From the NCBI GenBank assembly GCA_041690135.1, contig JAWLHY010000002.1:560342-624341 (forward strand): a stretch of DNA of 64,000 bases, in the 5' to 3' direction. Positions within the stretch are counted from its first letter, which is position 1. The number at the start of each line of letters is the position of its first letter. Below are positions 11,077 to 29,492 of the stretch, in pieces. The notes under the pieces were generated by a model, which was given only the letters and a program-made list of their open reading frames with translations, searched no databases and was not told the origin of the DNA. The stretch comes from Armatimonadota bacterium. Lineage in GTDB: Bacteria; Armatimonadota; SYMT01. The translations under genes and the position numbers were made by a program.

Positions 11077-11565
11077 TCAGCCTCCGTGAGCCGGCTCGCC
11101 CGAAGGCGCCGCCTGCGCGTGCGGAGGGAGTTCTACGATCTCGAACCAGTAGCGTCCCAGCGCCCGCATCACCTCGACCAGGCCGTCGAAGGTGACCGGC
11201 TTGGTGATGAAGGAGTTCACGCCCAGCTCATAGGTTCGCAGGATATCTTCCTCTGCTTTGGATGTGGTCAGCACCACGATCGGGATCAGGCGCAACTCCG
11301 GATGTTCCTTGATCTCGCGTAGCGCCTCGCGACCGTCCTTGCGCGGCATGTTCAGGTCGAGCAGGATCAGGCCGGGGCGCGGCGCGGCTCCCGGCTCGGC
11401 GTACTGCCCGCGTTGAAAGAGATAGTCCAGCAATTGCTCGCCGTCTTCCACAAAGCGGAGGTCATTGGCCAACCGGTTTTCTTCCAGCGCATCTTTCGCC
11501 AGCATGCGGTCATCTGCATCGTCATCGGCAAGCAGGATCGTGATCGGCCTTCCATGCAAATCCAC
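11077..11565 (-). CDS. Single-domain response regulator, Rcp1-like
   Basis: ILLADDD...ILLDLNMPRKDG...VLTTS...NSFITKP...YWFEIVELP; GTG start overlapping the upstream TAG. Confidence 0.9.
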   Translation of the reverse strand: MDLHGRPITILLADDDADDRMLAKDALEENRLANDLRFVEDGEQLLDYLFQRGQYAEPGAAPRPGLILLDLNMPRKDGREALREIKEHPELRLIPIVVLTTSKAEEDILRTYELGVNSFITKPVTFDGLVEVMRALGRYWFEIVELPPHAQAAPSGEPAHGG

Positions 11566-14500
11566 TAGCAATTCTCCTGGTACTTCTCGCGCTGCGGAAC
11601 GGTGATAATGAACGTGGCCCCCTCGCCGGGACGGCTGGTGGCGGTGATCTCCCAACCGTGGCGTTCGACGATCTTGCGGCAGATCGCGAGGCCGATGCCG
11701 GTGCCGGCGTATTCATGGCGGCCGTGGAGGCGTTGGAAGGGGGTGAAGATGCGGGAGAGGTACTTTTCGTCGAAGCCGATCCCGTTGTCTTCGATCCGGA
11801 TCTGCAGCCCGTCCGATTCCCCGTGCCCGGGGTCGACGCGGGGGCGGCAACTGATACGCACCCGCGGAGCCGTCCCCTCCTGCCGGAACTTCAGCGCGTT
11901 GCCGATGAGGTTCTGCAGCAACTGCCGCATCTGGGTCGGGTCCGCCTCCACCGTGGGCAGCGGCTCCAGTTCCACGCTGGCCCCGGACTGTTCCACGGCG
12001 GCCTCCAGGTCCGTCAGCACTTCCCGGGCGATCCGTCCCAGATCGGTAGGAGCGAGCGGCTGGGCGCGCGTGGTGATGCGGGAAAACGCGAGCAGATCGT
12101 TGATCAGCGTTTGCATCCGGCTGGCGGCACCCTGCATACGCTCCAGGTAATCGTTCCCCGCGTCGTTCAACTGGTCGCCGCACTTCACCTTGAGCCGGTC
12201 GCCGAACATCAGGATCTTCCGCAGGGGCTCCTGGAGGTCGTGGGAAGCCACGTAGGCGAAGTCCTGCAGCTCCCGGTTGGTTTGCTCCAACTGCGCCGCG
12301 AACGTCTGCAGCTTCTCTTCGGCCTGGCGCCGCTCGTGCGACTGAATCGCCAGCGCCACCAGGTCCGCGGCCGAGCCCGCGAAGTTGATCTCTTCCAGCG
12401 ACCACCGACGCGGGGAGCCGGTATGTTCCAGGCAGAGCACGCCCCGGAGTTCTCCGCCGACGCGGATCGGCGCGTCGAGCATGGCTGTCACGCCCAGGGG
12501 TTCGAGGTAGGCGGAGGTGAACTCCCGCGTGCGAGGGTCGTGTTGTGCCTCATGCGCGTCGATCACGCGCCCCCGCTCCAGCGCGGCGAAGTAGAGGGGA
12601 TAGTCGCTCGCCAGCACCGCCAGACCTCCGCTGTGGCGCCGCAGTTCCCGCTCGTAGAGATTGGCGCAGCGCAGGCCGGTCCGGTCCTCGTTGAACAGCC
12701 AGATGGCCGCGCGATCGACCTGGAGCGTGAGGGAGGCGGCTTCCGCGATTTCCCGCATGCCCGCGGAGAGCTCTCCGGCCCAGAGCGTTTTGCTGCGGGT
12801 GAGGTCCTCGAACATCTGATTCTGCGCCCGCAAGCGCCGCTCGCTCTCCTCCAGCGCGAGTTGGGCGCGCTTCCGCTCGCTGATGTCGGTAAACAGGCCC
12901 AGCACGCCGACCACCTCGCCCGCATCGCTGAACACGGGCGCCTTCACCACCTCCACGAACCGCTCCTCGCCCTGGAGCACGTTCCGCTCTTCCAACGTCT
13001 CCGCGCGTCCCGTGTCCATCACGCGCCGGTCGTCCGCGCGGTACTTGTACGCCAGTTCCGGGGGGAAGAAATCGTGGTCCGTCTTCCCGACGACCTCGCT
13101 GGGGCCGACCCCCAGGTCGGCGGCGAAACGCGGGTTGACGGAGACGAACACGGAGTCCCGGTTCTTGAAGAACACCCGCTGCGGCAGGGCCTCGATCAGC
13201 GTGCGGTAGCGCTCCTCTCGCACCCGCAGGGCCTCTTCCACTTGCTTACGGGCGGTAATGTCGAGGACGGTGCCCACGAACTTCTCGGGTCGGCCGGAGG
13301 CGTCGTGCCGCAGTTCACCCCGCTCCTGAACCCAACGCTCTTCCCCATTACGGCGGCAGATGCGGTGTTCCACCTGGTAAGGGTGTCCGTAATGGATGGC
13401 CGCCTGGATGGCGCGACCCACCCGAGCCCGGTCCGCGGGATGGATGAGGCTCATGAACAGGGTGCGGGAGGCGCGCACCTCCTCCGGGTCGAATCCGAAG
13501 ATCCGGTAAGCCTGATCGCTCCAGTAAAGCGAGTTGGAGGCCAGGTCCACTTCCCAGTTGCCCAGGCGCGCGATCCGCTGCGCCTCCTCCAACCGGGCTT
13601 CCGAAAGGGCATGCGCCTCCTCGGCCTGCTTGCGCTTGGTAACGTCCGTGCAGACGCCAACTACGCGCCAGCGCCCGGAGCCGAGCGCCTCGATCCGGGC
13701 GTCTTCGTAGAGCCAGCGGACGCGGCCGTCGGCCAGGCGGATGCGGAACTCGTGAGTGTATCCCGGCGCCGCTGCCCGGATCGCTTCGTTGCCGATGCGG
13801 GCAATGCGTTCCTTATCCTCGGGGAGCTTGCTGTCGTACCACGCATCCGAGAACCGCTGCCCCGGTCGCTTGCGGAGGGGGAAGAACTGCTCGGCGGCCG
13901 TTTCGTTGGTGACGAACAGGTCCCACTCGAGCCCGCTGGGAGCAGCCGGGTCCTCGTAGACGTCGGCGCTCCAGAGCAGACACCGGACGCCCGTGAGCAC
14001 GTGCGAAAGCTGCTCTTCCGCCAGGCGTTGCTGCGTGACATCGCGCGAGATACCGGAGAGGCCGACGATCCGCCCCTCTGGGTCGACCACCGGGACCTTG
14101 GTCGTGAGCAGCCAGCGCCGGGAGCCATCCGCAGTGCGGAGCGGTTCCAGCTTGTTGACGACAGTTTCCCCCTCCAGCACCCGGCGTTCGTCCGCCTGGT
14201 AGGCTGCGGCCAGGTCCTCGGGAAAGAACTCCCCATCGGTGCGGCCGACCGCCTGGTCGGGCGACTCCAGCCCGAGGATGGCCGCCTGCGCCCGGTTGAT
14301 GCGGATGAAGCGGGACTCCCTGTCTTTGAAGTAGATCAGGTCCGGGATCGTTTCCAGCAGCGCCTGCAGCAGGCTGCGCTCGTGGGCCACTTCACCTTCG
14401 GCCCGGATCCGGTCGGTGACTTCCTGCGTGAGTCCGTAGATTGTCCCGTGGTGCCCCCCAACTCCGGGAATCGGCCGCACCACGTCCCGCACCCACACGG

Positions 14501-14834
14501 TGCTCCCATCTGACCGGAGCATGCGGTAATCGACCTGGAACTCCCGGCCCGCCGCAATCCGTTCCGCACAGTACTCCGGAGTCCAGCCGCGGTCTTCCGG
14601 ATGAAGTTGCTCGCGCCAGAAGTCCGCCTGTTCCCCCCAGTCCGCCGCGGGCACCCCCAGCAGTGCCTCTGCATTGGGGCTGACGAAGGAGTAGCGCCTG
14701 CGCTCTGGGTCCGCCTCCCAGTACACGATCCCTAACCGGTACACCAGGTCGAGGGGCCGTTCCACGGTGGAACACCCCCTGCCGGGTGCCCGGCCGGACG
14801 CGGCGGATGGCGTCGGTTCGTCCTGAGTGTCCAT
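11565..14834 (-). CDS. Cytoplasmic multi-PAS (about 5) plus GAF sensor histidine kinase
   Basis: Repeated PAS/PAC ends (DVT.R); GAF MLDAPI; H-box FAYVASHDLQEPLRKI; NALKF, DNGIG, GTGIGL. Confidence 0.93.
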   Translation of the reverse strand: MDTQDEPTPSAASGRAPGRGCSTVERPLDLVYRLGIVYWEADPERRRYSFVSPNAEALLGVPAADWGEQADFWREQLHPEDRGWTPEYCAERIAAGREFQVDYRMLRSDGSTVWVRDVVRPIPGVGGHHGTIYGLTQEVTDRIRAEGEVAHERSLLQALLETIPDLIYFKDRESRFIRINRAQAAILGLESPDQAVGRTDGEFFPEDLAAAYQADERRVLEGETVVNKLEPLRTADGSRRWLLTTKVPVVDPEGRIVGLSGISRDVTQQRLAEEQLSHVLTGVRCLLWSADVYEDPAAPSGLEWDLFVTNETAAEQFFPLRKRPGQRFSDAWYDSKLPEDKERIARIGNEAIRAAAPGYTHEFRIRLADGRVRWLYEDARIEALGSGRWRVVGVCTDVTKRKQAEEAHALSEARLEEAQRIARLGNWEVDLASNSLYWSDQAYRIFGFDPEEVRASRTLFMSLIHPADRARVGRAIQAAIHYGHPYQVEHRICRRNGEERWVQERGELRHDASGRPEKFVGTVLDITARKQVEEALRVREERYRTLIEALPQRVFFKNRDSVFVSVNPRFAADLGVGPSEVVGKTDHDFFPPELAYKYRADDRRVMDTGRAETLEERNVLQGEERFVEVVKAPVFSDAGEVVGVLGLFTDISERKRAQLALEESERRLRAQNQMFEDLTRSKTLWAGELSAGMREIAEAASLTLQVDRAAIWLFNEDRTGLRCANLYERELRRHSGGLAVLASDYPLYFAALERGRVIDAHEAQHDPRTREFTSAYLEPLGVTAMLDAPIRVGGELRGVLCLEHTGSPRRWSLEEINFAGSAADLVALAIQSHERRQAEEKLQTFAAQLEQTNRELQDFAYVASHDLQEPLRKILMFGDRLKVKCGDQLNDAGNDYLERMQGAASRMQTLINDLLAFSRITTRAQPLAPTDLGRIAREVLTDLEAAVEQSGASVELEPLPTVEADPTQMRQLLQNLIGNALKFRQEGTAPRVRISCRPRVDPGHGESDGLQIRIEDNGIGFDEKYLSRIFTPFQRLHGRHEYAGTGIGLAICRKIVERHGWEITATSRPGEGATFIITVPQREKYQENC

Positions 14835-15152
14835 CGAAAGCGTTCCCTACCGTAGCGGCTCCTACTGTGGCCGGTTCCCAAGTAATTACATTTCTCCGGG
14901 AACTCGGAATCTCCTTGCTCGCTTGTTTTCAAAACATGCGTGGAGTGGAGCCGCCAGCAGGAAACCGGGGACGTTTATCCCACACGGTGCAAGGCACGCG
15001 CCTCCAGCCGGGCATGAGTATGGCCGGCTTGGAAGATCTTCCCCACCCTTGCGTCATCACGCGCTTCGCTGGTGCGGGGGCCAGCCCGGCCGCACTCTTC
15101 CACAGACACGGACAGCATCGGACCACGAAGACGTCCGGAGAGCGGAGGCCCG

Positions 15153-15275
15153 CTAGCTGCGGCGGCGTCGGAGGACGGCGACCGCGCCCAGTGCGGGCAA
15201 GAGGAGCAGCATCGAGCCGGGTTCGGGCACAGCGCTGGGTTCGATGTCCGAACCCGTAGGTTGCCTGCGCTTCAC
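15153..15275 (-). CDS. 40-aa micro-ORF consisting of a PEP-CTERM sorting signal, or an orphan PEP-CTERM gene remnant
   Basis: GTG overlapping the kinase TGA gives MKRRQPTGSDIEPSAVPEPGSMLLLLPALGAVAVLRRRRS*: VPEP + hydrophobic helix + Arg tail + stop. Confidence 0.6.
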   Translation of the reverse strand: MKRRQPTGSDIEPSAVPEPGSMLLLLPALGAVAVLRRRRS

Positions 15276-17827
15276 CCGCCGTTCTCTAGCAACTGCTTCA
15301 GGTGATTTGGGTCCACCGGCTTGGTCAGGTGGTGATGGAACCCCGCCTCCAGCGAGCGCCGGCGGTCTTCCGGCTGGCCGTAGCCACTCAGAGCCACCAG
15401 CAGCGGAACGTCGGGGTTCTTCTGGGTTTCGGGAGCCGGCTTGTGGCCTGGCGTGGAGGGCGCCCTTCGGGGCGCGGCCGTGGCCGCGCCGGAGGGTGCC
15501 CTCCCGGTTTTGGCGCCTTGGCGGGGATTCCCGGCGTTGCTAACGCATGGGTCGGCGACCTCCGCGGATGGGTGCTCTCCTCCCGCGCCGTTCGCGGCCC
15601 CGGCCCGCAGCCGGCGAGCCACCTGGTAGCCATCCAGCGTCGGCAGTCCGATGTCGAGCAGCACGACGTCCGGACGATAGTCGCGGGCCGCTTCCAGGGC
15701 GTCGGGGCCGTCCAGGGCCACATGTACCTCGTGGCCCCACAGTTCCAGCAACTCCGCCAGGGTCTGCGCGGCGTCCACGTTGTCGTCCACCACCAGCACC
15801 CGCCGCTTGCCGGGGGCCGCCGTCCGGCGCTCGGGGTGGGTCTCGCGGGGAGGTTCTCTCCCGGGCCTCTCCCCGGCGGACGTGCCGAGGCTCTCCTCGA
15901 AGGGTTCCGCGGCATCATCGAGCGGCAGGTGGACGGTAAACTCGCTGCCGGCGCCGTGGCCCTCGCTGGATACGGAGATGGTGCCGCCGTGCTTCTCCAC
16001 CAGAGCCTTCACCAGGCTCAGGCCAATCCCCAGTCCGCCCTGGGCCCGGTCCAGCGAGCGGCTTGATTGCGTAAAGAGATCGAAGATCCGGGCTTGGAGT
16101 TCGGTGGGGATCCCTACGCCCGTGTCCCGGACCCGGATGGCAACCCCCCGCCTGGGTGTGGACCTGACCGGCATGCCGGCCTCCGTCGTGGGTTGCGGCT
16201 CGACGGGTGGCGTCGGCGCTTCGTCCGTCACCGTCGCATCCAACCAGATCCGGCCGCCGGGATCCGTGTATTTTGCGGCGTTATTGAGCAGGTTGGAGAG
16301 TACCTGCTCCAGGCGCGTCGGGTCAGCCCGGAGCGGGATCTCGCCCTCGGGCAGTTCCAGGGACAGCACCTGCTGCCGCGATTCGATCAGCGGGCGGGTG
16401 GTCTCCACGGCCCCGGCAATCGCCTGGGCCAGGTTCACCCGGCCCATCCGAAGATCGACCCGTCCCTGGGTAATCCGGGAGACGTCCAGCAGGTCGTCGA
16501 CCAGGCGCGAGAGATGGTGGGTCTGGCGGGAGATGATCGATTGGAGGCGGCTACTGCGGTGCGGGTCTGCCGCTCCCCCTTGCTCCAGGGAGTACGCCGC
16601 GGACGAGATGGCGGCGAGCGGGTTGCGGAGTTCGTGCGCCAGCATGGCGAGGAACTCATCTTTGCGGCGACCCGCTTCCTCCACCTCATGGAACAGGCGG
16701 GCGTTGTCGATGGCGGCGGCCGCCCGCCGGGCGAGGTCCTCGGCCAGCCCCAGGTCTTCCTGCGTGTAGGTATGCCCGGCATCGCAGGTGCCCAGCGTGA
16801 TCACGCCCAGCTTGTGCCCGCGCGCCTCCAACGGCACCACCAGGTACGAGTGGGGGCCGAGGTCGCGCATGATTTCCAGGTGGGCTTCATCCAGCGCGGC
16901 GTTCCGCAGCCAGGTCTCGTCGACCCGCTCCACCAGTTCGGAGCGGCCCGTGCGCAGCACGCGCGCCGCCGGTTGCGGCGAGTCCAGCAGCGGAATGTAT
17001 TCTTCCTGCAGCCGGTTGAGCAATGCGTTCTTACGCGGATCGGCGTGGGTCGAAGTGGCCCGCCGGATCTCTCCCTCCGGGGTCACCAGGTCCACGATGC
17101 AGAAGTCTGCCAGGTACGGGACCGCCAGTTCGGCCACTCGTGCCAACGTGGTCGCGTAGTCCAGCGAACTGGCCAGGATCGCGCTGGCCTGCCCCAGGAA
17201 CAGGAGCCGCTGCTGGACCGCCTCGGCGCGCGCGCGTGCCGTCTGTTCCAGTTCCAGCAGGCGCTGGCGTTCCCGCTCCGCTCGCTCTCGCTCCGTGATC
17301 TCCCGGCGGAGAGCCCGGTTGGCTTTTTCCAATTCTGCCGTGCGTTCGGTTACGCGGCGCTCCAGGTCCGCGTTGAGGTGGCGGACTTGCTCCTCGGCCT
17401 CCCGGCGCTGGGCCGTCTCCTCCTGGAGTTGGCGGGTCTTCTTCGCCATCTCAACGAAGGCGGAGACCTTGGCCCGCAGCACTTCCGGGTCGAACGGCTT
17501 GAAGACGTAGTCCACCGCCCCCACGGAGTAAGCCCGGCTCACATACGCTTCTTGCTTGCTGTACGCGGTCAGGAACACGATGGGGGTGTGGGCGGAACGG
17601 GTCCGCTCCCGGATCAGGGCCGCCGTTTCGAAGCCGTCCATCTCCGGCATCTTCACGTCCAGCAGGATGACGGCGAACTCTTCATCCAACAGGCGACGCA
17701 GCGCTTCACGCCCGGAAGTGGCCGTAACCAGGTTCTGGCCCAGGTCTTCCAGGACGGCTTCCAGGGCGACGAGGTTCTCGGGCTGGTCGTCGACCAGTAG
17801 GATGCTGACGCGGGAGTCAGGCTGCAT
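15272..17827 (-). CDS. Hybrid histidine kinase REC-coiled coil-GAF-HisKA-HATPase-REC
   Basis: ILLVDD/LLDVKMP; KDEFLAMLAHELRNPL; NAAKYT; GGLGIGL; C-terminal LLDIGLP REC. Confidence 0.93.
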   Translation of the reverse strand: MQPDSRVSILLVDDQPENLVALEAVLEDLGQNLVTATSGREALRRLLDEEFAVILLDVKMPEMDGFETAALIRERTRSAHTPIVFLTAYSKQEAYVSRAYSVGAVDYVFKPFDPEVLRAKVSAFVEMAKKTRQLQEETAQRREAEEQVRHLNADLERRVTERTAELEKANRALRREITERERAERERQRLLELEQTARARAEAVQQRLLFLGQASAILASSLDYATTLARVAELAVPYLADFCIVDLVTPEGEIRRATSTHADPRKNALLNRLQEEYIPLLDSPQPAARVLRTGRSELVERVDETWLRNAALDEAHLEIMRDLGPHSYLVVPLEARGHKLGVITLGTCDAGHTYTQEDLGLAEDLARRAAAAIDNARLFHEVEEAGRRKDEFLAMLAHELRNPLAAISSAAYSLEQGGAADPHRSSRLQSIISRQTHHLSRLVDDLLDVSRITQGRVDLRMGRVNLAQAIAGAVETTRPLIESRQQVLSLELPEGEIPLRADPTRLEQVLSNLLNNAAKYTDPGGRIWLDATVTDEAPTPPVEPQPTTEAGMPVRSTPRRGVAIRVRDTGVGIPTELQARIFDLFTQSSRSLDRAQGGLGIGLSLVKALVEKHGGTISVSSEGHGAGSEFTVHLPLDDAAEPFEESLGTSAGERPGREPPRETHPERRTAAPGKRRVLVVDDNVDAAQTLAELLELWGHEVHVALDGPDALEAARDYRPDVVLLDIGLPTLDGYQVARRLRAGAANGAGGEHPSAEVADPCVSNAGNPRQGAKTGRAPSGAATAAPRRAPSTPGHKPAPETQKNPDVPLLVALSGYGQPEDRRRSLEAGFHHHLTKPVDPNHLKQLLENGG

Positions 17828-18404
17828 CGCCGGGCCTCACGTTTGTGGCGGTCAGTTGGAGCAGGAAGGGAGCGATGCCGGAGAGGGGAAGGACCCGGTC
17901 GGCACAGCCGGACTGGATGGCGGCCTGGGGCATCACGGCACATTCCGCGGTGGCCGGGTCTTGCACTACCACGAAACCGCCGTGTTGCTTCACGTAGGTC
18001 GCACCTCGGGCGCCGTCGTCGCTGGCGCCGGTGAGCACCACGGCAATCAAGCGGTCGCGATAATTATCCGCGGCGGATTCGAAAAGCACGTCGATGGATG
18101 GGCGGGAGTGGCGCACGGCACCCTCGGTCGAAAGCGCGAAGCTGTGGTCCTCTACCAGCAGGTGGTAATCGGCGGGGGCGAGGTACACGCGACCCGCCTC
18201 GATTGCCTGCTTATCCTGGGGCTCCACCACCCGCAAGGGGGTGTGTCGCTGGATGGCGGCGCGGAGTGGGTCGCCGGACTGGGCGCTGCGGTGGAGCACC
18301 ACCGCGACGGGCAGCGGATACCCGGCCGGCAGGCCGTTCAGGATTGTCTCCACTGCAATCAGCCCCCCCAGGGAAGCCCCGACCACCACGAGTTCGTAAC
18401 TCAC
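17817..18404 (-). CDS. cheB: Stand-alone CheB-type methylesterase without a REC domain
   Basis: GASLGG (Ser), VLHR (His), RPSIDVLFES, LTGASDDG (Asp), MP motif. Confidence 0.92.
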   Translation of the reverse strand: MSYELVVVGASLGGLIAVETILNGLPAGYPLPVAVVLHRSAQSGDPLRAAIQRHTPLRVVEPQDKQAIEAGRVYLAPADYHLLVEDHSFALSTEGAVRHSRPSIDVLFESAADNYRDRLIAVVLTGASDDGARGATYVKQHGGFVVVQDPATAECAVMPQAAIQSGCADRVLPLSGIAPFLLQLTATNVRPGDAA

Positions 18405-19294
18405 TAGCGGAACCTTCGATAGAGCTTTACGCCCGGCTCCAATTGCTCGTACTCCTTTTCATGCGGGGTGAACTGCAGCGATTCCTTCGCTCCCAGCCCC
18501 AGGATTCCGAAAGTGGCCAGGCTATCAAAGATGAGGTTGTGGACCCGGTATTGCAGCGTCTTGTTGAAGTAGATCATCACGTTGCGGCACAGGACGACGT
18601 TGAACTCGTTGAAACTTCCGTCGATGGCCAGATTGTGCTGCGAGAACAGGATGTTCTCCCTCAACGAGGCGCGGAAAATGGCACTCCCATAAGCGGAATT
18701 ATAGTACTCCGCCAGGGGGCGCGTTCCGCCCGCCAGCCGGTGATTTCTTTCGGCAGCGGCCATTTGCTCCAGCGGGAAAATACCCTCTCGCGCCTGCCGG
18801 AGAACCAGTTCGTTCATATCTGTCGCATAGATCCGGCTGCGCTCGTAAAGACCCTCCTCCTGGAGCAGGATGGCCATGGAGTAGACCTCCTCTCCCGTCG
18901 AGCAGCCTGCGTGCCACAGGCGCAAGAACGGGTACGTGCGCAGTTGCGGAATCACCTTGCGCCGGAACGCCAGGAAGAACTCCGGGTCCCGGAACATGGA
19001 GGTAACGTTGACCGAAACCGCCAGCAGGAACCGCTCCAGGCATTCCGGGTCGTGCAGCAGGCGTTCCTGAAGCCCCGAAATACTGGTGAGACCCTCTTCG
19101 CGGATCACGTTCCACACGCGCCTCCGTAACGAGGCCATCGCGTAGTCCCGGAAGTCATAGCCGTAATGGCTGTAGATCGCCTCCAGCAGCAGGCGTAGCT
19201 CGAGGTCCTCTCTCGGCCCCGCCGGGAGGGGTTGACCGTCCGACCCCTCTGCGCGCCCATCCACTGTGCTGTCGTTCACCGCTTCCACGCTCAT
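18404..19294 (-). CDS. cheR: CheR-type protein-glutamate O-methyltransferase
   Basis: VTSMFRD, WHAGCSTGEEVYS, ATD, HNL, CRNVMIYF, LGAKES. Confidence 0.93.
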   Translation of the reverse strand: MSVEAVNDSTVDGRAEGSDGQPLPAGPREDLELRLLLEAIYSHYGYDFRDYAMASLRRRVWNVIREEGLTSISGLQERLLHDPECLERFLLAVSVNVTSMFRDPEFFLAFRRKVIPQLRTYPFLRLWHAGCSTGEEVYSMAILLQEEGLYERSRIYATDMNELVLRQAREGIFPLEQMAAAERNHRLAGGTRPLAEYYNSAYGSAIFRASLRENILFSQHNLAIDGSFNEFNVVLCRNVMIYFNKTLQYRVHNLIFDSLATFGILGLGAKESLQFTPHEKEYEQLEPGVKLYRRFR

Positions 19295-19530
19295 CCCAGC
19301 TTGCCCACCTGGCGGCCTCCTCCAAACCCTTCTAGCAGTGGAAGACCGGCTGAAGGTTTCTACCGCATCCGCGGCCGGCTCAATCGCTCGGTCGAAAAGG
19401 GGATTGGGAAAGGGAGCCGGGGAAGCCGGCGCCCCGGTAACGACCAGGTCTCCCACTCCCCCTTCTCCCATTTCCCCTTCTCCCACTTCCCCCGTTCACC
19501 GATCTCCAGGCAGCACTGCGGGATGGGTGA

Positions 19531-22500: not shown

Positions 22501-25500
22501 TTTGAGGGCGGCAACCTCGCCCGCGGCTTCCACCGTAATCGACCGGGAGAGGTCGCCCGTGGTCACCGCGGTGGCCACTTCGGCGATGGCGCGGATCTGG
22601 GTGGTGAGGGTGGCCGCCAGCCGGTTCACGTTGTCCGTCAGGTCGCGCCACGTTCCGGCCGCGCCCGGCACGTTTGCCTGGCCGCCCAACTTCCCTTCGT
22701 TACCCACTTCGCGGGCCACGGTGGTCACCTGGTCGGCGAAGGTGGCCAGCGTGTCGATCATCGCGTTGATCGTCTCGGCCAGTTCGGCGATCTCGCCCTT
22801 CGCTTCCAGGACCAGTTTCTGACGGAGGTTTCCGTTGGCGACCCCCGTCACGACCCGGGCGATGTTTCGCACCTGGTCGGTGAGGTTACTCGCCATGGAG
22901 TTCACGCTGTCGGTCAGATCCTTCCAGGTCCCGGAGACCCCCTTCACCTCGGCCTGGCCGCCCAGCTTCCCTTCCGTGCCCACTTCGCGGGCGACGCGGG
23001 TCACTTCGGATGCGAAGCCGTTGAGCTGATCGACCATCGTGTTGATGGTGTTCTTCAGTTCCAGGATCTCGCCGCGCGCCTCGACCGTGATCTTCTTGGT
23101 CAGGTCGCCGTTCGCCACCGCGGTGGTTACCCCGGCGATGTTGCGCACCTGACCGGTGAGGTTGGAGGCCATGAAGTTCACGTTGTCGGTGAGGTCCTTC
23201 CAGGTTCCCGCCACCCCGGAGACGTAGGCCTGCGCTCCCAGCTTTCCTTCCGTGCCCACCTCGCGGGCCACGCGGGTCACTTCCGTCGCGAAGGCGTTGA
23301 GCTGATCGACCATCGTGTTGATGGTGTTCTTCAGCTCGAGGATTTCTCCCCGCACGTCCACCGTGATCTTTTTCGACAGGTCACCATAGGCCACGGCCGT
23401 GGTCACGTCGGCGATGTTGCGGACCTGGGCAGTTAGATTGGAGGCCATCAGGTTCACGCTGTCGGTCAGGTCTTTCCAGGTCCCCGAGACCCCCTTGACC
23501 TGGGCCTGGCCCCCCAGTTTCCCTTCGGTACCCACTTCCCGCGCCACGCGGGTGACTTCGGAAGCGAAGCCATTGAGCTGATCGACCATCGTGTTGATGG
23601 TGTTTTTCAGTTCCAGGATCTCGCCGCGGACGTCTACCGTGATCTTCTTGGAGAGGTCGCCGTTCGCCACCGCGGTGGTGACTTCGGCGATGTTGCGCAC
23701 CTGCCCCGTCAGGTTCGAGGCCATCGAGTTCACACTATCGGTGAGGTCCTTCCAGGTCCCGGAGACCCCCCGGACCTCCGCCTGACCGCCCAACTTCCCT
23801 TCGGTACCTACTTCCCGCGCCACGCGGGTGACTTCCGAGGCAAAGGCGTTGAGCTGATCGACCATCGTGTTGATGGTGTTCTTCAGTTCCAGGATCTCGC
23901 CGCGGACGTCTACCGTGATCTTCTTCGACAGGTCCCCGTTCGCCACGGCGGTGGTCACCTCGGCAATGTTCCGCACCTGGCCTGTCAGGTTGGAGGCCAT
24001 GGAGTTCACGCTGTCGGTGAGGTCTTTCCAGGTGCCGGCCACTCCCTTCACCTGGGCCTGGCCCCCGAGCTTTCCTTCCGTGCCCACTTCCCGCGCCACG
24101 CGGGTCACTTCGGAAGCGAAGGCGTTGAGCTGATCGACCATCGTGTTGATGGTGTTCTTCAGTTCGAGAATCTCTCCCCGCGCGTCGGCGGTGATCTTCT
24201 TGGAAAGGTCGCCGTTCGCCACCGCGGTGGTGACCTCCGCAATATTTCGCACCTGGCCCGTCAGGTTACTCGCCATGGAGTTCACGTTGTCGGTCAGGTC
24301 CTTCCAGGTGCCGGCGACCCCCTTCACCTCCGCTTGTCCACCCAGGATCCCTTCGGTGCCCACTTCACGGGCGACGCGGGTCACTTCGGAAGCGAAGCCG
24401 TTGAGCTGATCGACCATCGTGTTGATGGTGTTCTTCAGCTCCATGATCTCGCCGCGGGCGTCGGCGGTGATCTTCTTGGAGAGGTCCCCCGTGGCGACGG
24501 CGGTGGTGACTTCCGCGATGTTGCGCACCTGGTCGGTCAGGTTGCGGGCCATGAAGTTCACGCTGTCGGTCAGGTCTTTCCAGGTCCCGGAGACCCCCTT
24601 CACCTCGGCTTGCCCGCCCAGGATCCCCTCCGTGCCCACTTCGCGGGCGACGCGGGTGACTTCCGAGGCGAAGGCGTTGAGCTGATCGACCATCGTGTTG
24701 ATGGTGTTCTTCAGTTCCAGGATCTCCCCGCGGGCATCGGCGGTGATCTTCTTGGAGAGGTCGCCGGTTGCGACGGCGGTGGTCACTTCCGCGATGTTGC
24801 GGACCTGGCCCGTCAGGTTACTCGCCATGGAGTTCACGTTGTCGGTGAGGTCCTTCCAGGTGCCGGCGACCCCCTTCACCTCCGCTTGTCCACCGAGGAT
24901 CCCTTCGGTGCCCACTTCACGGGCCACGCGGGTCACTTCGGAAGCGAAGCCGTTGAGCTGATCGACCATCGTGTTGATGGTGTTCTTCAGCTCAAGGATT
25001 TCCCCGCGGGCGTCGGCCGTGATCTTCTTGGAGAGGTCCCCCGTGGCAATGGCGGTAGCCACCTCGGCAATGTTTCGTACCTGGCCCGTCAGGTTACTCG
25101 CCATGGAGTTCACGTTGTCGGTGAGGTCCTTCCAGGTGCCGGCGACCCCCTTCACCTCCGCTTGTCCACCGAGGATTCCTTCGGTGCCTACTTCGCGGGC
25201 CACGCGGGTCACTTCGGAAGCGAAGCCGTTGAGCTGATCGACCATCGTGTTGATGGTGTTCTTCAGTTCCAGGATCTCTCCGCGCACATCCACCGTGATC
25301 TTCTTGGAGAGGTCGCCGGTCGCGACGGCGGTGGTGACTTCGGCGATGTTGCGCACCTGGTCGGTCAGGTTGCGGGCCATGAAGTTCACGCTGTCGGTCA
25401 GGTCCTTCCAGGTGCCGGAAACCCCCTTCACCTCCGCCTGTCCGCCGAGGATCCCTTCGGTGCCTACTTCGCGGGCCACGCGGGTCACTTCGGAAGCGAA

Positions 25501-26235
25501 GCCATTGAGCTGATCGACCATCGTGTTGATGGTGTCCTTCAGGTCGAGGATCTCGCCGCGCACGTCGACCGTGATTTTCTTGGAGAGATCTCCGTTTGCT
25601 ACCGCAGTCGTTACCTCCGCGATGTTACGGACCTGCGCGGTGAGGTTGGAGGCCATCAGGTTCACGCTGTCGGTCAGGTCCTTCCAGGTTCCCGAGACCC
25701 CCTTCACCTGGGCCTGCCCCCCGAGCTTTCCTTCGGTGCCTACTTCCCGTGCCACGCGGGTCACTTCGGATGCGAAGGCGCCCAACTGATCGACCATCGT
25801 GTTCACCGTCTTGGCCGTCCGCAGGAACTCACCGGTGAGCGGGCGTCCGTCGATGTCCAGCGACATCGTTTGGGAGAGATCGCCTTTAGCCACCGCGCCG
25901 ATGACTCGGGCCACTTCCGTGGTGGGCTGCACCAGGTCGACGACGAGATCATTGACGGCTTCAACGCAATCTGCCCACTTGCCGGTCGCGTTGGCGAGGT
26001 GCGCGCGCTGCGAGGTCTTTCCCTGCTTGCCTACCACCTTGCTGATGCGGGCCAACTCGGCTGCCAGCCGCTCGTTCTTATCGATGACCTCGTTCAGGGC
26101 ATCGTAAATCTTGCCTGCGATGCCGGTCGCGTCGACCGGCATTCGTGCGGAGAAGTCACCCTTGTTGACCGCCAGCAGGACGCTGAGGAGCTGTTTCTCA
26201 TCCAGAACTTGAGTTTCGGCTGGTACTGTAGCCAT
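19531..26235 (-). CDS. Cytoplasmic poly-HAMP hybrid histidine kinase (Nik1/OS-1/OsaA-like): HAMP array-GAF-Q/E coiled coil-HisKA-HATPase-3xREC
   Basis: 12 conserved 92-aa repeats ([13 protein letters not shown]...WKDLTD) plus a degenerate N-terminal one; [17 protein letters not shown]; GGTGLGL; three REC domains; no TM helix. Confidence 0.95.
22474..25785 (-). repeat. 12 x 276-bp intragenic tandem repeat (HAMP units)
   Basis: GCTGATCGACCATCGTGTTGATGG recurs at 276-bp spacing. Confidence 0.95.
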
Positions 26236-27211: not shown

Positions 27212-28273
27212 TCAGCTTTGGAGTTCCTTAACGTACGTTTCCAATTCCGCGGCCCGGTGTGCCGCGGAATGGGACTGCAACACCCTCTGGCGAGCGCGCT
27301 CTCCGAGGGCGAGACGCTCGGATTCCGGGAGGTCGCGGACCCGGGCCAGGCTTTCCTCGGGGCTGCGGGCTACCAGGATTTCCTTTTCCGGTTCGAAGAA
27401 GGTGTCGAGCCCTTCCCACCAGTCGCTGATGATCGGCGTGCCGCACGCCGCGGCCTCGAACAGGCGCACGCTGGGAGAATACCCGGCGCGGATCATGTCG
27501 GCGCGGGTGACGTTCAGGGTGAAACGTTGACGATTGTAGAAGGCCCGGTGCTCCCGTGGCGGGAGGTGTTCGATGCGCCGCACGTTCGCGGGCCAGCGCA
27601 CGGATGCGGGATACTGCGGCCCGGCCACGACGAAACGCCCGGCACTCCAGCGCCGGGCCGGCTCCAGCAGGAGATTCTCCAGGGGCGGTTGGCGGTCGTC
27701 GCTGTAAGTGCCCATGTACCCGAGGTCCCACTCTATTTCCCGCGGTTCGGGGAAGTAGAGCTCCGGGTCGAACGAGCAGTAAAGCGGGCGTGCCGCCGGC
27801 GAGCCGTAGCGGCTTTCGATCTGCTTCAGGATCGGGCCGCCCGAGAAGGAGAGGTAGAGTTGGTAGGCGGGGATCAGCTCGGGTGAGAGATACTCCAGAT
27901 CGCCCCGTTCGAGCTTCGCCAGGGTTACCGGCGTATCGATGTCGTAGAATGCGGAAACACCTTGCGCGGTACGCGTCACCCACTCGCCCACCCGCACTCC
28001 TTCGGGAACGTAGGAGCCCACGATCACGAGGTGCGAGGCCCGCACGGCCGCCTGGAAGCGGTCCTTCAACTCGTCGAGGTTAGCGTAGAGTTCGGTCCGG
28101 CCGAAGGGCGGACGGGGGAGGTCCCGGTTCTCGGCGTACCAGGGCACGTCGCGCTCGAGAAAAAGAACGTCATGGCCGCGGGCCACCAGTTCCCGGACAA
28201 GCCCCCGATACGTGGTGGCATGCCCGTTGCCCCAGGAAGAAGTGATGGAAAGACCGAGGATCGTGATGCGCAT
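27212..28273 (-). CDS. CgeB/YkvP-family glycosyltransferase
   Basis: SSWGNGHATTYRGL, YDIDTP, LNVTR...SPSVRLFEAAACG; true start at 28273 (the ORF-track N-terminus is the microsatellite). Confidence 0.88.
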   Translation of the reverse strand: MRITILGLSITSSWGNGHATTYRGLVRELVARGHDVLFLERDVPWYAENRDLPRPPFGRTELYANLDELKDRFQAAVRASHLVIVGSYVPEGVRVGEWVTRTAQGVSAFYDIDTPVTLAKLERGDLEYLSPELIPAYQLYLSFSGGPILKQIESRYGSPAARPLYCSFDPELYFPEPREIEWDLGYMGTYSDDRQPPLENLLLEPARRWSAGRFVVAGPQYPASVRWPANVRRIEHLPPREHRAFYNRQRFTLNVTRADMIRAGYSPSVRLFEAAACGTPIISDWWEGLDTFFEPEKEILVARSPEESLARVRDLPESERLALGERARQRVLQSHSAAHRAAELETYVKELQS

Positions 28274-28298
28274 CGGTTCGGGTGAGTGTGAGCGTCGA

Positions 28299-28410
28299 GG
28301 GTAAGAGTAAGAGTAAGAGTAGGGGTAAGAGTAAGAGTAGGAGTAAGAGTAGGAGTAAGAGTAAGAGTAAGAGTAAGAGTAGGAGTAAGAGTAGGAGTAG
28401 GAGTAGGAGT
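28299..28410. repeat. Intergenic hexamer microsatellite (GRGTAR)x18
   Basis: GAGTAA/GAGTAG/GGGTAA units from 28299 to 28406 plus GAGT. Confidence 0.95.
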
Positions 28411-28418
28411 GAGAAAGG

Positions 28419-29492
28419 CTAGAGCAGCAGTTGCTCGAGTTGCTCCGCGCGGTGGGCGTAGGTATGCTCCGCAAGCACGCGCCGGAGTGCCGCCTGGCCG
28501 ATCTCCCGGGCGCGTTCCGGCGTGAGCGAGCGCACGTGCTCGGCCACTTCGTTCCCATCGTGAGCTACCAGGACTTCGCGGTCGGGCTCCAGGAATTGCT
28601 CCACGCCCTTCCAGGCGTCCGTGATGAGGCATGCGCCGGCGCCGGCCGCTTCGAAGACGCGCGTGGCCGGGGAGAAGCCGTACTCCGCCATGCTCTCCCG
28701 GCTGATGTTGAGGACGGCCAGTGGCGTGCAGTTGAACGCGTTGTGGTCGCGGGTGTACACGTGCCCGCGGTAGCGCACGTTCTCCGGCATTGGCTTGTCG
28801 CCCCACCCGCTGCCGCCCAGCAGGAAGTGCCGTTCGGGCAACTCGGCCGCGGCCCGGAGGAAGAACTCCTCCACGCGTCGCTCCCGGTCCGGCAGGCGGT
28901 TTCCGAGAAAGCCGAGATCGGCGGCGAACTCCGGGTTCGGCGGTACGGGATGGTGCGTCTGCGGGTCCAGCGCATTATAGATCGGGATGCAGGCTCGCGC
29001 GCCCAGGGCCCTGTAAGCATCCGACACCGGATCGCCGCCGCCGTAGGTGAGTACGAGATCGTAGCGGGGGATCAGCGCGCGGAACGGATCGCCGGGGTTC
29101 TCGTGGACCCGCGCCAGGGTCGCGGGAGCATCGACATCCCAGAAGATCACCCGGGTGTTCGGTCCCTGGTGGCGCAGCACTTCTCGCTCCAGCAGTTCAT
29201 CGAACACGCCGACGCCGCTCGCCTTCACCACCAGGTCGCATCCGGCGGCCCGTTCGACCATGCGGATCGCTTCCCCCTCGTCCGTACCGGAGTAGACCAC
29301 CACCTCCGCCCACTCGGGATCGGGGATGTCCCGGTGCTGTTGCCGCTCATAAGCGTCCGGTTCGTAAAAGGTCACCCCATGCCCGCGCTCGTACAACGCC
29401 CGGACGATGCCCCGGTAGTAGGTGGCGGCGCCGTTCCAGTAGGCGGAGACCAGACTGGAGCCGAAGAAGGCGACTTTAAGACCGCGGCTCAT
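28419..29492 (-). CDS. CgeB/YkvP-family glycosyltransferase
   Basis: SAYWNGAATYYRG, WDVDAP, LGNRLPDRE, SPATRVFEAAG. Confidence 0.88.
   Translation of the reverse strand: MSRGLKVAFFGSSLVSAYWNGAATYYRGIVRALYERGHGVTFYEPDAYERQQHRDIPDPEWAEVVVYSGTDEGEAIRMVERAAGCDLVVKASGVGVFDELLEREVLRHQGPNTRVIFWDVDAPATLARVHENPGDPFRALIPRYDLVLTYGGGDPVSDAYRALGARACIPIYNALDPQTHHPVPPNPEFAADLGFLGNRLPDRERRVEEFFLRAAAELPERHFLLGGSGWGDKPMPENVRYRGHVYTRDHNAFNCTPLAVLNISRESMAEYGFSPATRVFEAAGAGACLITDAWKGVEQFLEPDREVLVAHDGNEVAEHVRSLTPERAREIGQAALRRVLAEHTYAHRAEQLEQLLL

Follow-up and report, generated by a model that had tools for sequence, protein, structure and literature searches.

Organization of the locus

Analysis of the window, i.e. 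the whole 64,000-nucleotide stretch of the Armatimonadota contig under study, indicated that the genes for a HAMP-repeat hybrid kinase, CheR, CheB and a REC-GAF hybrid kinase follow one another on the reverse strand and together constitute a chemosensory-like two-component operon (Table 1). The REC-GAF kinase gene is the last tightly packed gene of this operon, and its product is predicted to be soluble, the maximum hydropathy over 19 residues being 1.54. A micro-ORF of 40 codons begins where this 851-amino-acid kinase ends: its GTG (15275-15273) and the TGA of the kinase gene (15274-15272) have two bases in common, and the neighbouring genes of the operon overlap as well. A preliminary description of this DNA had reported a 40-amino-acid micro-ORF opening at a GTG that overlaps the kinase stop; both the reading frame and the GTGA are present and the translation agrees.

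The deduced peptide, VKRRQPTGSDIEPSAVPEPGSMLLLLPALGAVAVLRRRRS, in which the first codon may be read as V or M, consists of a 14-residue lead, VPEP at residues 16-19, a 14-residue hydrophobic stretch MLLLLPALGAVAVL (residues 22-35, mean Kyte-Doolittle value 2.6) and RRRRS, followed by the stop. The tail of VPEP, transmembrane segment and arginines ending at a stop, as described earlier, was thus recovered, with domain, hydrophobic helix, basic cluster and stop in that order. It had also been claimed that the micro-ORF lacks a signal peptide and a passenger domain, and this was borne out. The N-terminus, MKRRQPTGSD, when read by eye contains no hydrophobic region and no signal peptide of the kind carried by a complete substrate, and only 14 residues precede the PEP-CTERM domain. 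The frame from stop to stop comprises 128 codons, of which 88 open codons precede the GTG. These 88 codons are an off-frame reading of the C-terminal part of the kinase's second receiver domain; they are rich in Arg, Pro and Gly, and neither a start codon (ATG, GTG or TTG) nor a hydrophobic N-terminal segment occurs in them.

Inspection of the 30 nt preceding the GTG revealed none of the Shine-Dalgarno motifs GGAG, GAGG and AGGA. The 318-nt spacer that follows the micro-ORF gave no Pfam, Rfam, promoter-like or terminator-like match, and none of the six ORFs that overlap the place of the micro-ORF in other frames or strands matched a Pfam family under E 0.2. Three sub-threshold Rfam matches to animal RNA families at this place were not credible and were discarded.

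Table 1. Coordinates of the micro-ORF, its surroundings and related loci of the same genome (G000)
Feature	Position	Strand	Remarks
40-codon micro-ORF, 40 aa	15153..15275	-	start GTG, stop TAG; ORF listing and translation
PEP-CTERM domain proper, residues 15-39 of the micro-ORF	15159..15233	-	sole stretch with DNA and protein similarity to paralogous tails
GTGA start/stop overlap	15272..15275	-	micro-ORF in -1 frame relative to the kinase
Hairpin, 7 bp, 5-nt loop	15237..15255	-	inside micro-ORF codons 7-13
Hybrid histidine kinase, 851 aa, REC-GAF-HisKA-HATPase-REC	15272..17827	-	domain matches
CheB methylesterase	17817-18404	-	
CheR	18404-19486	-	
HAMP-repeat hybrid kinase, 2286 aa	19531-26391	-	
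Spacer from micro-ORF stop to PAS-rich kinase, 318 nt	14835..15152	-	unique in the genome
PAS-rich histidine kinase	11565-14834		next gene beyond the spacer
Paralogue examples	C3:821875-822570, C2:459432-460142, C1:1558557-1559261, C14:231324-231992, C6:153006-153767		genome G000
Exosortase/PEP-CTERM neighbour pairs	C14:194919-197606 + C14:197683-198459; C3:717550-718362 + C3:718511-719494		genome G000

Assignment to the PEP-CTERM domain family

Comparison with curated domain models placed the micro-ORF above the cut-offs of both PEP-CTERM families: 28.0 bits against PF07589 (cut-off 20.7, residues 15-39) and 23.9 bits against TIGR02595 (cut-off 16, residues 16-39), the latter being the check that had been proposed for the peptide. 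When the whole 9.1-Mb genome was searched in six frames, the micro-ORF ranked 5th among 25 PEP-CTERM matches (26.7 bits, E 8.5e-5 per genome), 17 of which exceed the Pfam cut-off. The other 16 sit in open frames of 222-895 aa, each with an N-terminal hydrophobic segment that by eye is signal-like or membrane-spanning and in many of them is a common MRRW...GLLGGARPAAAQT signal, so that the micro-ORF is the sole one of the 17 without a signal-like N-terminus and a passenger.

A genome-specific tail model was built from the 19 other tails of the same genome, these tails being scored leave-one-out. The micro-ORF scored 49.5 bits as a 40-aa peptide, 8th of 20, and 45.5 bits in the genome-wide six-frame scan. 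In that scan the 20 real tails reached at least 32.8 bits, the next real segment 11.7 bits and the best decoy among 172,157 reversed-genome segments 13.1 bits. The motif of the micro-ORF ends one residue before the stop, and in 18 of the 19 paralogues -1 to 5 residues follow.

Off-frames of G+C-rich DNA are rich in A, L, G, V and R, and the window contains 65.7% G+C; a chance motif, or else a chimeric assembly, might therefore be considered. Both are hardly credible here. The tail score of 45.5 bits against 13.1 bits for the best decoy, together with both curated cut-offs exceeded, argues against chance. With regard to the assembly, two public DNA runs (X1 and X2) share small parts with this DNA, their contigs being pieces of single-read size; the listing of public runs showed no RNA run that contains it. 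A contig of 151 letters and depth 2 from X1, an independent run, aligns to 15238-15388 with three differences and takes in the kinase stop together with codons 1-12 of the micro-ORF. Because this contig spans the junction, though only at depth 2, the joining of kinase and micro-ORF is unlikely to be chimeric. Chance and artefact were in this way largely refuted.

Haft et al. (2006, PMC1569441) reported a signal peptide in about 97% of PEP-CTERM proteins; in their model of exosortase action the PEP motif comes to lie at the interface of membrane and periplasm after export driven by that signal peptide. Like the PEP-CTERM proteins (PF07589, TIGR02595), which are substrates of the exosortase EpsH/Xrt, the micro-ORF has VPEP, helix, arginine cluster and stop, but unlike them it is the sorting signal alone, at 40 aa, without signal peptide or passenger. 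The micro-ORF thus truly belongs to the PEP-CTERM domain family, yet it is not a complete PEP-CTERM protein, as both of these parts are lacking. An exosortase, whose presence in the genome was a further point to be confirmed, is represented by three PF09721 matches, which exceed the cut-off with scores of 146.7, 146.7 and 72.7 bits.

Paralogues in the same genome

Searches of the peptide against its own genome revealed homology to the C-termini of about 19 full-length paralogues, tblastn giving E values of 1e-9 to 1e-6 at identities of 64-77%. With C2:460035-460139 the alignment begins at residue 5 of the micro-ORF, nine residues ahead of the AVPEP motif, and this early start hints that the end of a former passenger domain may be preserved there. 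At the DNA level the identity to paralogues was 69-80% in seven alignments of at least 53 nt (E <= 0.002); the similarity is confined to about 15160-15233, with a maximum of 80% over 74 nt. Judged by similarity at both levels, the tail clearly descends from the genome's own paralogous family. In comparison with that family, the tail is alike (64-77% in protein, up to 80% in DNA) and the stop falls at the same place, while the paralogues have the MRRW signal and a passenger and the orphan tail has neither.

The paralogues constitute a genome-specific PEP-CTERM family with a conserved signal, MRRW-W-G-LA-GLLGGARPAAAQT, a conserved tail of the form AVPEPGAL-LFLPALGVVAVLRRRRS, and passengers seemingly unrelated in sequence; roughly 170-270 residues separate the signal-like segment from the tail. 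A model of the family signal peptide matched 10 places genome-wide, all 10 with a tail; between signal start and frame end eight of the 10 span 213-226 aa, the other two 233 and 294. The architecture of the family looks cassette-like. Such an arrangement, in which common signal-peptide and tail modules surround unrelated passengers, in copies of which eight of 10 measure 213-226 aa, suggests that the orphan might be a silent tail cassette, kept or tolerated as a recombination donor or by-product among paralogues. We regard this as very unlikely: DNA identity not exceeding 80% over 74 nt, with saturated synonymous sites, gives no sign of recent exchange, and neither flanking repeats nor a matching signal-peptide stump were found.

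Kinase-like sequence was found within a few kb at two of 22 other PEP-CTERM loci examined in the genome, so a kinase neighbour is not a habit of the family. Two of the three exosortase homologues directly adjoin a gene for a PEP-CTERM protein; one of these PEP-CTERM frames measures 895 aa and has several hydrophobic N-terminal segments, the other 327 aa.

Comparison with relatives and databases

A protein search of seven genomes of the family yielded one syntenic ortholog, on contig C76 of genome G005, which belongs to another genus. At this nearest syntenic locus the kinase is 60-72% identical and the CheB directly upstream of it 58%. About 390 nt separate the kinase stop from the end of the contig, and no tail was found there in the three forward frames. 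Since the G005 genome as a whole gave no PEP-CTERM match at E <= 0.001, the absence of a tail at its locus says little. Neither the family model (E <= 1) nor a generic motif detected a tail at 159 loci of distant kinase homologues, 79 of them metagenomic (best identity 51%) and 80 from species genomes (best 53%). DNA searches of 31 relatives matched only conserved pieces of receiver domains.

Among 5.8 billion clusters, a search for homologous short proteins (22-70 aa) returned one candidate and nothing significant, the search being word-limited and weak for a 40-aa query. Longer proteins gave 375 candidates and none at E <= 0.001, again a weak negative for a query of this length. The exact 40-aa sequence is absent from a collection of 15 billion proteins.

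A survey of a sample of 81 genomes of the phylum gave 682 PEP-CTERM matches, and among the 150 of these that were listed two lie in open frames under 130 aa. Neither was retained as an orphan tail: the first lies at the start of a contig, and the second, on contig C25 of G067, is a full-length gene split by a frameshift. At this second locus (113400-115400) passenger and tail occupy different frames, 342-1403 and 1087-1335; the split is a frameshift or sequencing error and exemplifies the usual origin of short PEP-CTERM frames. On the strength of the 150 matches listed of 682 in these 81 genomes, a true orphan PEP-CTERM tail looks rare.

Start region and hairpins of the micro-ORF

The start region of the micro-ORF is part of a locally stable fold (-43.8 kcal/mol, z -2.7), which, on the idea of translational coupling, a ribosome terminating at the kinase stop would open. 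This fold and the GTGA, the latter in an operon with overlapping genes, are compatible with a working micropeptide, in which reinitiation at the GTG would give a bare 40-aa PEP-CTERM membrane peptide that titrates the exosortase or links the kinase operon to surface sorting. The intact frame, the tail at consensus level with no signal of relaxation, and the presence in the genome of three exosortase homologues and 16 other PEP-CTERM matches point in the same direction. We nevertheless consider a micropeptide unlikely. The chance that a start codon falls within the 14 codons before the motif is about 4 in 10 by our own uncomputed estimate from start-codon frequency in G+C-rich DNA, so the GTGA overlap is weak evidence, and a canonical Shine-Dalgarno motif is missing. 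The peptide has no signal peptide, and by the positive-inside rule KRR at its N-terminus and RRRR after its helix would disfavour the N-out orientation that such a peptide needs. Its neighbour, the predicted soluble kinase, would offer no obvious contact to a membrane peptide. The failure to find the tail at the G005 syntenic locus or the 159 homologous kinase loci, or short homologues among the 5.8 billion clusters in the word-limited search, also argues against it.

That a free 40-aa sorting signal acts on the exosortase, as competitor, primer or sensor of sorting capacity, seems improbable. If this were true, CheR/CheB-controlled signalling would be tied to the display of surface proteins, and the peptide would be the first stand-alone sorting-signal micropeptide. 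Were the peptide made and active, it would open a new route to regulating or probing the exosortase-dependent sorting of proteins, the mechanism of which is still poorly known, and would be an uncommon instance of a sorting signal that serves by itself.

Small single-pass membrane peptides that modulate sensor kinases, such as MgrB with PhoQ, and SafA, act on membrane kinases. The micro-ORF product resembles them in size, in its one hydrophobic helix and in its position beside two-component genes, a likeness for which no homology is claimed; their kinases are membrane-bound, whereas the kinase here is predicted to be soluble. A two-component link of another kind is given by PrsK, PrsR and PrsT, which according to Haft et al. 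(2006, PMC1569441) regulate proteobacterial PEP-CTERM genes, PrsK being a transmembrane kinase and PrsR a sigma-54 activator. The kinase of the present operon differs from PrsK in its REC-GAF-HisKA-HATPase-REC architecture and in having no 19-residue window above a hydropathy of 1.54. Of the 183 NCBIfam matches of this kinase, the 25 best do not include PrsK, and each of the 25 falls short of its own cut-off. Owing to this architecture and the absent membrane segment, assignment of the kinase as a PrsK-type regulator was rejected.

A 7-bp hairpin had also been noted at the junction. It is present but only mildly unusual (-11.8 kcal/mol, z -2.5), as 4 of 200 shuffled sequences fold equally well, and it reflects in part the CGAACCC repeated in two Glu-Pro codon pairs. 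Two mutually exclusive hairpins are in fact contained in 15218-15256; they share the arm ACGGGTTCGGACA (15245-15256), whose partner is either 15237-15243 (7 bp) or 15218-15229 (12 nt, 92% complementary).

Relative to the kinase, the tail is read in the -1 frame, which stays open through the junction and has a hairpin downstream; a -1 frameshift near the stop might therefore extend the kinase by the tail, so that some of the kinase molecules would be anchored to the membrane. Such a C-terminal extension is extremely unlikely. No X XXY YYZ slippery heptamer exists at ...AAC GGC GGG TGA, and the hairpin begins 16 nt after the stop, which is farther than usual for frameshift stimulators. RRRR after the helix would oppose the N-in orientation that a cytoplasmic kinase needs, and the pairing of kinase and tail is absent from the G005 locus and the 159 homologous kinase loci.

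Divergence of the tail

Synonymous and nonsynonymous differences were estimated over the 25 tail codons against 12 core paralogues, with seven more divergent tails omitted (C9_338650, C1_1575835, C3_718523, C1_257904, C2_398697, C11_275689 and C1_1085723). Between the orphan and the 12 paralogues pS was 0.62 and pN 0.18 (ratio 0.29; 0.286), and among the 66 pairs of paralogues pS was 0.63 and pN 0.215 (ratio 0.34; mean 0.341). Synonymous sites are saturated, at about 0.62, in the comparison of orphan and paralogues. These values indicate that the orphan tail diverged long ago from the paralogues under purifying selection and has accumulated no extra amino-acid change, with the proviso that in 75 nt a neutral divergence of a few per cent would escape notice. 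As the tail bears no mark of decay, a relic must be young, or the tail must still be selected; pN/pS fits either of these and does not tell them apart.

Origin of the micro-ORF

The preliminary description had offered two readings, the stump of a deleted surface-protein gene and a membrane micropeptide. The former is favoured by the homology, by the standing of the micro-ORF as the sole orphan and by the failure to find kinase and tail paired at the G005 syntenic locus or the 159 homologous kinase loci; the latter, which draws on the intact frame and the GTGA, did not hold up equally well. The micro-ORF is probably a young 3' stump of a PEP-CTERM paralogue without selected function. We favour a stump because this is the only orphan among the tails, because the sequence upstream is off-frame and no conserved kinase-tail module was seen at the loci compared, and because a Shine-Dalgarno motif, a short homologue and an exact database match are all missing from the searches described above.

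According to this interpretation, a full-length PEP-CTERM paralogue would once have lain downstream of the hybrid kinase. Its promoter, its signal peptide and its passenger domain would have been lost through a deletion or rearrangement, with the 75 nt that code for the tail remaining about 40 nt after the hybrid-kinase stop. We infer that the N-terminal part was lost by deletion and that the micro-ORF has no selected function today. Ribosomes terminating at the kinase stop may occasionally translate the stump. Its product, with KRR at the N-terminus and no signal peptide, would not be expected to show VPEP at the periplasmic face, given the positive-inside rule and the model of Haft et al. 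(2006).

Several observations speak against a stump. The stop is retained at the usual place of the family and the tail stands at consensus level; the first in-frame start overlaps the kinase stop, which fits translational coupling; and a junction within about 40 nt of that stop needs a somewhat lucky end-point of the deletion. No ancestral full-length gene was found, and the family signal-peptide model, run over the genome, gave no reciprocal copy with signal and without tail. A motif search of the window for signal peptides found nothing, and blastx of 14835-15700 against the paralogues, in search of a passenger remnant, matched the tail only.

As a relic, the micro-ORF would be a commonplace trace of gene loss, to be annotated as a partial PEP-CTERM gene and not as a new gene. 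A caution would also follow for domain models built on short sorting signals, which can give matches to stumps.

Additional features of the operon and its surroundings

The second receiver domain of the REC-GAF kinase carries an in-frame insertion in the loop preceding the 'VPLLVALSGYG' strand (window positions 15400-15600, reverse strand): 66 residues lie between RRLR and this strand, compared with 18 in the G005 ortholog, and in relatives the DNA matches leave out query positions of about 100-297. The insertion is rich in Ala, Gly and Pro and unique in the genome, and has a core palindrome at 15455-15504. Its inverted repeat, with 20-nt arms, folds at -47.3 kcal/mol (z -4.5; 0 of 200 shuffles as stable). 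Positions 15436-15586 are also represented by a nearly identical contig of run X1, 151 letters long.

In the 2286-aa kinase, 11-13 HAMP domains are encoded by a 276-nt tandem repeat at 22858-25803 (10.7 copies, 85% matches). Farther along the window, the hexanucleotide GTAAGA is repeated in 19 copies at 28301-28414 and reads (SY)n near the N-terminus of the longest ORF of a glycosyltransferase-like protein (27212-28558, reverse strand), the true start of which may lie downstream of the repeat.
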